From: Octopus vulgaris
Lineage: Eukaryota
Assembly: GCA_951406725.2 (NCBI GenBank)
Contig: OX597834.1
Location: 15,686,001-15,750,000 of the forward strand
DNA length: 64,000 nucleotides
Direction of reading: 5' to 3'
Shown: piece after piece, positions 14,499-17,260 of the stretch
How positions within the stretch are numbered: position 1 is the stretch's first letter
Layout of the letters: every line of letters begins with the position of its first letter
Notes under the pieces: generated by a model
Databases searched by the model: none
What the model was told of the DNA's origin: nothing
Seen by the model: the letters and a program-made list of their open reading frames with translations, nothing else
Translations under genes and position numbers: made by a program

Positions 14499-14608
14499 AA
14501 ATATCGTCTGATGAGCGTGGGGACTGCAATATGCTTTGTGTAATCCAAAACATTGCATGAGGCTTACATTGAATAAATATTCTCAGCGAAACAATTCTCA
14601 CAAAATTT
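14499..14608 (+). ncRNA. Degraded type I hammerhead ribozyme motif with long helix II
   Basis: AAATATCGT-CTGATGA-GC(g)TGGGGA...TTCTCAGC-GAAAC-AATT-CTC-ACAAAATTT. Confidence 0.55.
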
Positions 14609-14621
14609 GTTCGTTTATATT

Positions 14622-14662
<41 letters not shown>

Positions 14663-14728
14663 GTCTCTCTCTCTCTCTCTCTTATAAATAAAAGAAGAAA
14701 AGAATTAACAATAACAAACAACAAGAGG

Positions 14729-14920
14729 ACGCCCGGTAGATCGCTAGCCATTACACATTCTTTATTTTCCCTCATTGTTTCTTTCTGTGTTCCTTTCTGT
14801 GGAAGAGCGTAGGCTCGAAACATTAAAGACTTTATCACTTCCCAAGCGTTATACTAATTCATCAGATTGTTATCTATACCACTTCGACTTTTGTTTTTTT
14901 TTCTTTTTTGTGAATTTTCC

Positions 14921-14924
<4 letters not shown>
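14729..14924 (+). mobile_element. Family D hammerhead-bearing ~190-bp element, copy 1 (diverged)
   Basis: Homologous to 14952-15120, 37407-37598 and 40297-40483. Motif CTTT-CTGTGGAA-GAGC-GTAG-GCTC-GAAAC-ATT-AAAG at 14793-14828. Confidence 0.75.
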
Positions 14925-14951
<27 letters not shown>

Positions 14952-14954
<3 letters not shown>

Positions 14955-15116
14955 TCTCTCCTTGTTTCTCTCCTTGTTTTTTCTGTGTCCCCTTTCTGTA
15001 GAAGAGCATAGGCTCGAAAGGTAAAAGACTTTTTCTATATTCCTGAGCGTTATACAAATACATCTGTTTGTTTTGTACACCACCTGTCTCCGTCTTTTGT
15101 TTTTTTCGTAAACTCT

Positions 15117-15120
<4 letters not shown>
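14952..15120 (+). mobile_element. Family D element, copy 2
   Basis: CTTT-CTGTAGAA-GAGC-ATAG-GCTC-GAAAG-GTA-AAAG at 14992-15027; TA tracts on both sides. Confidence 0.8.
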
Positions 15121-15170
<50 letters not shown>

Positions 15171-15176
<6 letters not shown>

Positions 15177-15434
15177 TTTATTTAAAAGCAGTAGAAATAT
15201 AACAAAAGCTGTTACTCAGAGTTTCACGTTCCCGTTCGTCGGACAGTTTTAACATAGTTAAAGGATACACCTTTGTTCAATTTTAACAAAACTGTCCCAC
15301 GAACGGGAACGTGAAACTCTGAGTAACAGCTTTTGTTATATTTCTGCTGCTTCTAAATAAAGCATATTACTCTACATCTGGTATTTGAGTACTCTTTTTT
15401 TATACCTAGTTTCACATTCATGTGCTTACTCCGG
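15171..15434 (+). mobile_element. Family E fold-back element (80-bp inverted arms plus tail) with two hammerhead motifs
   Basis: Arms 15171-15250 and 15288-15367. Minus-strand motif CTGT-CCGACGA-ACG-GGAA-CGT-GAAAC-TCTGA-GTA-ACAG. Confidence 0.82.
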
Positions 15435-15480
15435 TATGTATGTATGTGTATTGTTAAACCTCGCTAAGATAAATATTTCA

Positions 15481-15547
15481 ATCACCTGAAGATTGACTGT
15501 AACTTGAATTTTTACGAATTGGACAGCCATGAAACGATCATAGTGTT
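15481..15547 (+). ncRNA. Type I hammerhead ribozyme motif (canonical CUGAAGA core, slightly decayed)
   Basis: CAC-CTGAAGA-t-TGACTGT...ACAGCCA-t-GAAAC-GATC-ATA-GTG. Confidence 0.6.
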
Positions 15548-15672
15548 ATATTCATTATCTGTTTTTAATAATTTTGCTATATATTTAAAATAATATAAAT
15601 TAATTAATCTTATGTATTGGCTTAACTTTTTCATTGTATGATTTGCCTAATAGTGGTTTTATCTCTAATTGA

Positions 15673-15718
<46 letters not shown>

Positions 15719-16045
15719 ATGGCTCAGTGGTTAGAGCGTCTGGCTCACGATCATGAGGTAGTGAGTTCGACGGGGCTGTGTGTTGTGTTCGTGAGCAAGC
15801 CGAACTTTATTTCACATTGCTCCAGTTCACTCAGCTGTAGAAATGAGTTGTGACATCACTGGTACCAGGCTGTATCGGCCTTTGCCTTTCCCTTGGATAA
15901 CATCAGTGGCGTGCTAAGGAGAGGCTGGTATATATGGGCAACTGCTAGTCTTCCATAGACAACTTTGCACAGATTTGAGCCTCGGAAGGGAACTTTCTAG
16001 GTGCAATCCCATCGTCATTCATGACCGAAGGCGTTTCTTTACCCT
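15719..16045 (+). mobile_element. SINE-C-related copy
   Basis: TGGCTCAGTGGTTAGAGC head; TCGTCATTCATGACCGAAGG tail. Confidence 0.75.
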
Positions 16046-16218
16046 TTCTTATAATACCTTTTCTGATTAAATGCTGCCCTTGCATGTCGTATATAACATA
16101 TTGAAATATAAAACAGCGTACCGTACCTTCAAATGTGTTAAGTAACTTGTCTTTCATGTGCAAACATTTTTTGTTTGACTAAGGATATTTCTGCAACACT
16201 GTGTGTGTGTGAATGTGT

Positions 16219-16616
16219 AAGGCGGCGAGCTGGCAGAAACGTTAACACGCCGGGCGAAATGCTTAGCGGTATTTCGTCTGCCGCTACGTTCTGAGTTCAA
16301 ATTCCGCCGTGGTCGACTTTGCCATTCATCATTTCGGGGTCGATTAAATAAGTACCGGTTACGCACTGGGGTCGATATAATCGACTTAATTCGTTTGTCT
16401 GTCCTTGTTTGTTCCCTCTGTGTTTAGCCCCTTGTGGGTAGTAAAGAAATAGGTATTTCGTCTGCCGTCACGTTCTGAGTTCAAATTTCGCCGAAGTCGA
16501 CTTTTGCTTTCATCTTTTCGGGGTCGATAAATTCAATACCAGGTTGCTTACTGGATCGATCTAATCGACAGGTCCCTCCCAAAAGATTTCTGGGCATTTA
16601 CCTAGAGTAGAAAAGA

Positions 16617-16617
<1 letters not shown>
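16219..16617 (+). mobile_element. SINE-B dimer (full unit plus headless unit)
   Basis: Junction AGAAATAG|GTATTTCG at 16452/16453. Confidence 0.88.
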
Positions 16618-16672
<55 letters not shown>

Positions 16673-16859
16673 GTGTGTTTATATCAATTTATCATTCAAC
16701 AGGAGGATTACTCAATGCATTTTAGTAGAATAAATGTAAATTAAACTTTCACAAGAATGGGAGTGACAATGACTTCGACGTTTCGATAGGCTAGCCTTCG
16801 CATATTCAATATGCCTACACAAGAAATGGCTTTATGAAATTAGTAATAGCATACTATGG

Positions 16860-16920
<61 letters not shown>

Positions 16921-16921
16921 A

Positions 16922-17152
16922 ATTTAAAGCAGCAGAAAATTCAACAAAGCATGTTACTCTGAGTTTCACGTTCCCGTTCGTCGGACAGTTTTTGCTAGAA
17001 TCTAGCAAAGATTGTCCGACGAACGGAACGTGAAACTCAGAGTAACAGGTTTTGTTGAATTTTCTGCTGCTTTAAATAAAGCATATTACTCTACCACTGG
17101 TATTTGAGTACTCTTTTTTCCAGCTTGTTTCACATTTATGTGTTTACTCCGG
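16922..17152 (+). mobile_element. Family E fold-back element, copy 2
   Basis: Palindrome 16922-17077 centred on TTGCTAGA-A-TCTAGCAA. Hammerhead motifs at 16951-16990 (-) and 17011-17048 (+). Tail matches copy 1. Confidence 0.82.
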
Positions 17153-17169
17153 TGTATATATATATATAT

Positions 17170-17260
17170 AATCAAAATAAGCAACAAGAATAACTTCGGT
17201 AATTTGGTACGATCGTTTCGCACTACATCATTTTATTAAATGTTATTAAGTGTGCATCTA
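17170..17260 (-). mobile_element. Family H Penelope-like end with truncated hammerhead
   Basis: Minus strand ..AGA-T-GCAC...GTGC-GAAAC-GATC-GTA. Terminus ATCAAAATAAGCAACAAGA resembles that at 26085. Confidence 0.5.

Follow-up and report, generated by a model that had tools for sequence, protein, structure and literature searches.

The dense cluster of hammerhead ribozyme motifs at positions 14,499 to 17,260 of a 64,000-nucleotide stretch of the Octopus vulgaris genome (contig OX597834.1, positions 15,686,001 to 15,750,000, hereafter the window) is very probably a stack of seven truncated insertions of Penelope-like elements (PLEs). These insertions belong to five families, lie in (TA)n tracts and carry hammerheads that are likely inactive. 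One of them, the family D copy, lacks the intron of its parent, and its likely origin is reverse transcription of a Hydra-type PLE's sense RNA after splicing. The cluster is thus a known kind of object and not a working ribozyme array. Its features are as follows.

14330..14612, plus strand: family C, the old, 5'-truncated 3' end of a PLE matching the Hydra type, linked to an ORF via L132 and L074
14499..14608, plus strand: family C hammerhead with a long helix II and a canonical CUGAUGA at 14508
14736..14923, plus strand: copy 1 of family B, comprising the 3' end of a PLE of Neptune/Nematis type by its motifs; core CUGUGGA
14924..14952, no strand: (TA)n target tract, from the repeat content of the window
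14953..15119, plus strand: family B copy 2, of a different subfamily; core CUGUAGA
15120..15174, no strand: (TA)n target tract, same source
15171..15250, minus strand: family A insertion 1, inverted arm without tail (80 nt, 96%)
15288..15434, plus strand: family A insertion 1, forward arm with a tail of about 75 nt; U4C and G5C
15450..15472, plus strand: family D exon 1 (23 nt), starting just inside the presumed Inr-like start site of the parent's pLTR
15473..15672, plus strand: family D exon 2, from the hammerhead to the end of the pLTR, without tail; core CUGAAGA at 15486
15673..15715, no strand: (TA)n target tract, same source
16860..16917, no strand: (TA)n target tract, same source
16922..16992, minus strand: family A insertion 2, inverted arm without tail; U4C, helix I down to 3 bp
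17011..17152, plus strand: tailed forward arm of family A insertion 2; U4C
17168..17244, minus strand: family E inverted arm without tail, truncated within helix II so that the CUGAUGA half is absent
17252..17302, plus strand: family E forward arm, only the final 51 nt of the tail; no sequence in common with the inverted arm
17303..17339, no strand: (TA)n target tract, same source

The first-pass annotation of this DNA had listed nine hammerhead-like motifs, and all nine are present at the coordinates and on the strands it gave. It had supposed at least four families; five dispersed families, A to E, were found. Family A accounts for four motifs, which form two inverted pairs, and family B for two (beginning at 14793 and 14992), while C (14499-14608), D (15481-15547) and E (17205-17260, with the 5' half of the core absent) contribute one each. 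In the host genome of 2.8 Gb, a first look gave 1602 candidate copies of A, 2760 of B, 908 of D and 1557 of E, and 13 matches were found for C. Exact matches to motifs of 29-30 nt numbered 15,487 for B and 1,571 for A, while controls with the reversed pattern gave none.

A strict descriptor of the minimal hammerhead returned four hits between 14300 and 17400, against a mean of 0.01 (maximum 1) in 300 dinucleotide shuffles. Three of these four hits fall among the nine motifs, all of them family A copies, and the fourth, at 16062, looks like a chance match. In 390 kb of unselected comparison DNA from the same genome, the descriptor gave 12 hits, against none in one shuffle. Rfam scans of the window, by gathering threshold and by E-value, hit noise from microsatellites and hairpins but no hammerhead family. 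Five motifs were folded alone, and none was more stable than its own shuffles (z from -0.6 to +0.9); motifs this short, which depend on a partner, would be expected to behave so. Among 12 repeated families (at least three members each) that were picked by core sequence alone, nine have a palindromic helix III together with a helix I of at least 3 bp, and six pass the full descriptor. The note's palindrome in helix III was likewise confirmed, and it shows compensatory change from one family to another: its variants ACGATCGT, ACAATTGT, ACAGCTGT, ACGT and ACTC-W-GAGT change in step among families, and single copies add the palindromes ACACGTGT, ACTGCAGT and ACCATGGT. Helix I pairs in 100% of cases against a shuffle mean of 58% (1/5000), a figure with some circularity, since the selection had itself made use of helix I. 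Pairing in helix II is weaker, at 77% against 58% in shuffles (58/5000).

The nine motifs amount to seven insertions, since each head-to-head pair of family A represents the two arms of a single insertion. The pairs 15171-15434 and 16922-17152 each consist of an inverted arm without a tail and a tailed forward arm, and inverted arms adjoin 14 of the 40 family A copies that were scored. The family E insertion has the same anatomy, except that its arms do not overlap. In every family the 3' end is fixed and (TA)n follows it, whereas the 5' ends mostly vary, and the PLE traits of 5' truncation, an inverted 5' copy and an optional tail are all present. The two family B copies belong to different subfamilies and are separated by (TA)n. 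No head-to-tail array of ribozyme-bearing units was found, and the tandem repeats between 14.5 and 17.3 kb are microsatellites only.

All five families could be traced to longer copies that carry a PLE ORF, comprising RT plus, at the C-terminal end, a GIY-YIG-type nuclease, on the same strand and upstream of the hammerhead; the ORF is absent from the window copies themselves. The Penelope origin proposed earlier was therefore upheld, while the accompanying description of non-coding, retrozyme-like parasites was not. As longer copies link every family to a coding PLE, we regard the window copies as truncated PLE copies and not as retrozymes. Parents of family A (L031, L032) contain the RT thumb and the nuclease with CxxC..E..N..CxH, and the parent of family B (L135) contains YIDD, a CX4CxxC linker and a GIY-YIG domain with CCHH-type residues. 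Family C was linked to its parents L132 and L074, the latter having both the post-ORF region and the hammerhead in common; this link crosses a microsatellite and rests on 2 of the 13 copies. Four of the 12 long loci of family D hold the ORF, in which DKT, YRDD, CxC-X5-C and CxxC..E..N..CxH occur. The parent of family E (L131) has the same coding features as those of family A, plus an inverted arm. Of two further Hydra-clade characters, DKT and the N-terminal RWK, the former was seen in L291 of family D; the sampled copies of A, C and E end short of DKT, and all sampled copies end short of RWK. No intact full-length parent was recovered for any family, all parents found being truncated or damaged.

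The motifs by which Craig et al. 2021 define the Hydra clade (CxC-X5-C, and CxxC and CxH around E and N, without CCHH) are complete in family D, while A, C and E keep the C-terminal ones and have a partly decayed linker. Insertion into (TA)n, a further character of that clade, is seen in A, C, D and E. By motifs, not by a tree, these four families match Hydra-type PLEs, and family B is assigned in the same manner to the Neptune/Nematis type, marked by a CX2-5CxxC linker and a GIY-YIG with CCHH. Of these two names, Neptune may be the better one for family B. A Pfam search gave GIY-YIG for the family B ORF with an E-value of 9e-4, below the cut-off, and nothing relevant for the ORFs of A, D and E. 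Two other placements were rejected: that the family E hammerhead is antisense to its ORF (L131 turned out to hold an inverted arm as well as the same-strand ORF), and that a Hydra ORF piece near D in L104 and L130 is the family D parent (it is a separate insertion).

The reported accumulation in TA tracts holds, with 2.3 (TA)8+ tracts per kb here against 0.76. The idea of a unique landing site does not hold, as neighbours cluster around such insertions genome-wide. The unselected 390 kb contains 31 insertions of families A-G, which gives 0.22 expected per 2.8 kb, against the seven seen here (six blocks in the clustering script, in which the two B copies were merged); the maximum among 39 unselected 10-kb pieces is three. 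The corresponding Poisson value of 4e-9 overstates the excess, because the site was chosen for its density. Within 300 bp of 142 anchored insertions there are 24 neighbours against 6.8 expected (3.5-fold), and anywhere within the 142 anchored loci there are 59 against 32 expected. The stack is the extreme of a general, genome-wide clustering tendency. Each insertion would leave (TA)n on both flanks, so that later insertions may land alongside; such a feedback would produce clustering of this kind.

The family D copy of the window (15450-15672) is an exact GT-AG join, at 15472/15473, across an intron of about 900 nt that the parent carries in its pLTR (terminal repeat), just 5' of helix I of the hammerhead. 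D copies resembling it all begin at one point. The first-pass annotation had placed it among non-coding parasites and missed that it reads instead as a spliced retrocopy; a description of D as a stand-alone non-autonomous element was dropped once the intron was found. The reason for the common starting point came to light with L235, an inverted insertion of 9.2 kb from the related D2 family: short D2 copies join donor to acceptor just 5' of helix I. Splice sites for D1 were predicted from D2 and then found, with 164 matches for the acceptor and 73 for the donor, and 15 of 20 donor loci have an acceptor 885-906 nt downstream. The exact donor-to-acceptor jump is present in 25 of 73 hammerhead copies of D1/D4 and in 5 of 8 of D2, the window copy included; these counts come from a stricter search, a looser one having been swamped by low-complexity hits and discarded. 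Matched 25-nt patterns gave 509 spliced joins against 164 unspliced ones. No spliced form was found in family A (0/29), B (0/56) or E (0/14), and splicing may be restricted to family D.

All 30 spliced copies stop at or inside the sequence TTAGTT, and none reaches beyond it. This site lies about 35 nt after TATAAA in the D parent, and we take the former to be an Inr-like start site and the latter to be a TATA box. Splicing and the start site, which we infer, are both read from DNA copies. Spliced and unspliced states both occur in seven subfamilies with matching exon-1 variants. On a tree of 107 tips (5 of 112 copies were unclassified and left out), at least 23 changes of state are needed, against a shuffle mean of 35.7 and a minimum of 26; the number is below that of shuffles and yet well above a single change. 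This clustering fits the pattern-based sampling of copies, and also some amplification from spliced source copies. In inverted pairs, both arms share one splice state in 15 of 15 classifiable cases (8 spliced and 7 unspliced, with one more pair unclassified). Contigs of four sequencing runs were compared, and the same 906-nt GT..AG skip occurs in those of run X1, which we guess to be RNA, and transcribed spliced DNA copies could explain it.

Retrocopying of spliced RNA has two rivals as the source of the intron-less D copies. They might form a SINE-like non-autonomous family, in which one or a few intron-less sources arose once and were then amplified by the Hydra enzyme from their own internal promoter. 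The fixed 5' end in 30/30 copies, the excess of spliced over unspliced copies and the partial clustering of state on the tree would all suit such a family, and non-autonomous PLE derivatives are described by Craig et al. 2021 (PMC8557442). However, both states recur in the seven subfamilies with matching diagnostic bases and again in the divergent D2, whose intron is a different one; unspliced copies with the same 5' end exist as well (L279, L285). Even under this scheme, spliced sense RNA must have been the source of the first copy. We consider it unlikely. Much less probable still, and in our estimate the weakest of the readings, is that the template was a self-priming antisense RNA (Arkhipova 2013) and that the D copies lost their introns by DNA deletion. 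Head-to-head inverted arms with palindromic junctions, the pattern behind that model, are indeed common. The ends of the deletions would nevertheless have had to coincide precisely with GT and AG in each of two introns unrelated to one another, with no long repeat at those ends, the copies stop at an Inr-like site of the sense strand, and the two family E arms of the window share no sequence, unlike the arms of a fold-back copy. The antisense model is largely refuted for the short D copies, and the long copies that keep the intron could still fit it.

That the cluster is a working unit, either retrozyme-like or a ribozyme array adopted by the host that cleaves its transcript via dimers, is a third possibility, to be set against the condition of the hammerheads. 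None of the nine motifs combines a canonical core with intact helices. Helix III is broken in C (G16.2 to C), in both B copies (G16.2 to A in copy 1, C15.2 to G in copy 2) and in D (G16.2 to A); the forward arm of the first A insertion has G5C, and in E the core is without its first half. In three A copies U4C is the one departure from the canonical form, and the inverted arm of insertion 1 is intact apart from this change. Six of the nine motifs carry private damage or truncation. The first-pass annotation spoke of point mutations in several copies and missed that two of these, U4C and the A6U of family B, are family-wide. Among the first 100 of the 1,571 exact family A matches, 90 have C4 and eight have U4; the mirror CpG change occurs in seven, which marks the U4 copies as decay products. 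Among the first 100 of the 15,487 family B matches, position 6 is U in 96 and position 7 varies freely. C4 is also present in other families among the loci sampled. Families A and B have thus amplified with non-canonical cores. According to Perreault 2011, U4C is a low-activity viroid variant and A6C is slow. The hammerheads of the cluster have likely lost ribozyme activity. Insertion ends do not pile up at the cleavage site: among 30 tail-anchored copies, none has its end within 5 nt of it (five values near -160 in this count are limits of the reference or inverted arms).

In favour of a working unit, the minus-strand A motifs at 15204-15250 and 16951-16990 keep matching palindromes and could pair within one transcript, and the density of seven insertions exceeds anything in the unselected pieces. 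Against it stand the lack of tandem units, the damage just described together with the U4C of the remaining three motifs, the different palindromes of the families and the genome-wide nature of the clustering. Each A motif is, moreover, predicted to be locked in a hairpin with its inverted arm; for the pair 15171-15367 the model gives one long hairpin of -145.9 kcal/mol (z -23). We therefore hold a working unit to be highly improbable, somewhat ahead of the antisense template and well behind the SINE-like family.

Sense, spliced and uncleaved RNA is likely a template of these elements, which speaks against the antisense-template account of intron retention. In the scheme that we propose, the GIY-YIG nuclease of the element would cut (TA)n, and RT would start inside the sense RNA at two points one tail-length apart, by analogy with Frangieh et al. 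2024. The two resulting cDNAs would become the tailed forward arm and the inverted arm without tail, and one or the other may be short or absent. RNA begun at the pLTR promoter would yield short copies that end at the start site and are spliced in about three of four cases, whereas read-through RNA spanning the whole unit would yield long copies that keep the intron. The hammerhead would travel as an uncleaved passenger in the copied RNA. On balance we favour, with some reserve, the broader claim: Hydra-type PLEs leave hundreds of exactly spliced, start-site-terminated retrocopies, with both arms of each inverted insertion derived from one RNA. These would be the first genomic evidence that we have found for the copying of sense RNA by double internal priming, intron retention in long copies would reflect which pLTR primed and not an antisense template, and successful families would carry fixed U4C or A6U.

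Several known systems resemble what is found here. Hydra-clade PLEs, including Hydra-1_Obim of Octopus bimaculoides (Craig et al. 2021, PMC8557442), have the same C-terminal GIY-YIG-type nuclease without CCHH. They share the CxC-X5-C linker, the CxxC and CxH that flank E and N, the (TA)n targets, a hammerhead close to the 3' end and, with family D, DKT. Family A matches the Hydra-2_aMil pattern of that paper in its helices I and III and in the cleavage triplet, while all five hammerheads of the window differ from the Hydra-1_oBim motif in its File S2. Every Hydra core listed in that file has U4 and A6, whereas family A has C4. The passages covered of the same paper report neither a pLTR intron nor a spliced copy for Hydra, and they call the significance of intron retention in PLEs unknown.

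Penelope of Drosophila virilis (Schostak 2008, PMC2377424; Cervera and de la Pena 2014, PMC4209133) has a pLTR promoter, a short first exon and a spliceosomal intron ending at the 5' end of helix I, as here, and most of its transcripts are spliced. Its intron measures 75 nt, compared with about 900 nt in D1 and about 1.8 kb in D2, and these papers describe intron retention, whereas genomic copies in the octopus are often intron-less. PAc Poseidon of Anolis (Frangieh et al. 2024, PMC11167929) likewise has two internal sites of RT initiation, one on each side of the tail, as well as AT-rich targets, an uncleaved RNA template and no RNA ends at the cleavage site; its tail is 30-40 nt against 75-95 nt here, and its evidence was obtained in vitro, while ours is genomic and not biochemical. 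The passages covered of that paper do not deal with splicing. Non-LTR retrozymes (Li et al. 2026, 10.64898/2026.07.22.740005; PMC7229834) are also short, non-coding, related to the pLTRs of PLEs and equipped with a type I hammerhead. They form head-to-tail arrays with a hammerhead per unit (10.64898/2026.07.22.740005), in contrast to the single or head-to-head copies with coding parents described here, which contain no tandem complete-hammerhead units and whose five families all continue into PLE ORFs. Arkhipova 2013 offered antisense self-priming and left a sense unspliced template open. In the literature covered, neither genomic PLE copies without their intron nor clusters of hammerheads in octopus had been reported before, as far as we found, and an earlier mention is possible.

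The cluster itself is ordinary transposon debris, and its value lies in what the family D copy led to. In family D, the splice state, the 5' end of the RNA and both RT start points are preserved in hundreds of natural insertions, so that the question of the template and of intron retention can be tested by counting them. The fixed U4C and A6U cores of very successful families provide natural pairs in which the need for cleavage can be tested. Going by the literature covered, the novelty lies in retrocopies that are spliced and terminate at the start site and in non-canonical cores that have become fixed, and with them two open questions about PLEs become testable.

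The 3' ends of the Penelope-like elements (PLEs) are interspersed in the window with SINE-like repeats, part of which are arranged in tandem with a period of 184-238 nt. These and the other repeats, together with the further hammerhead-bearing copies and a short stretch adjoining B copy 1 (a family B 3' end at 14736..14923, +), are as follows:

9206-10435 (+), LINE-type reverse-transcriptase fragment (Pfam RVT_1, E 2e-27)
33390-33908 (+), LINE-type reverse-transcriptase fragment (Pfam RVT_1, E 7e-4)
5634-6119, 13884-14120, 15716-16030, 16220-16570 and 33986-34546, SINE-like repeats
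37421-37597, 40298-40483 and 42371-42488, two more family B copies and one copy of G, another hammerhead family
14683-14735, 53-nt stretch from the (TC)n tract to B copy 1

The 53-nt stretch had no clear relative among the loci compared; it is possibly an inverted arm from another family. A further minimal hammerhead, family F, is B-like, with the core CCGACGA (U4C) and GUU, and was observed at L101, L157, L164 and L167; six of its insertions were counted in 390 kb of unselected DNA.

A head-to-head inverted insertion of family D2, 9.2 kb long, was observed at L235 (G000:C1:13258200-13268100, local 580-9770), each arm spanning about 4-5 kb. Its internal duplications are GT-rich, with exon 1 and the donor each occurring twice, and no PLE ORF lies in reach; the insertion represents a 3' region of great length or, alternatively, a non-coding derivative. 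Among the Hydra-type ORFs, long in-frame linkers rich in asparagine or threonine were seen at L131:6014-6445, L287 and L296, and these resemble the linkers of rotifer Penelope elements as described by Arkhipova (2013).

In the predicted fold of L085, a spliced D1 locus, exon 1 base-pairs with nucleotides on the 3' side of helix I; splicing would accordingly alter the outer stem of the hammerhead, an effect also remarked for D. virilis.
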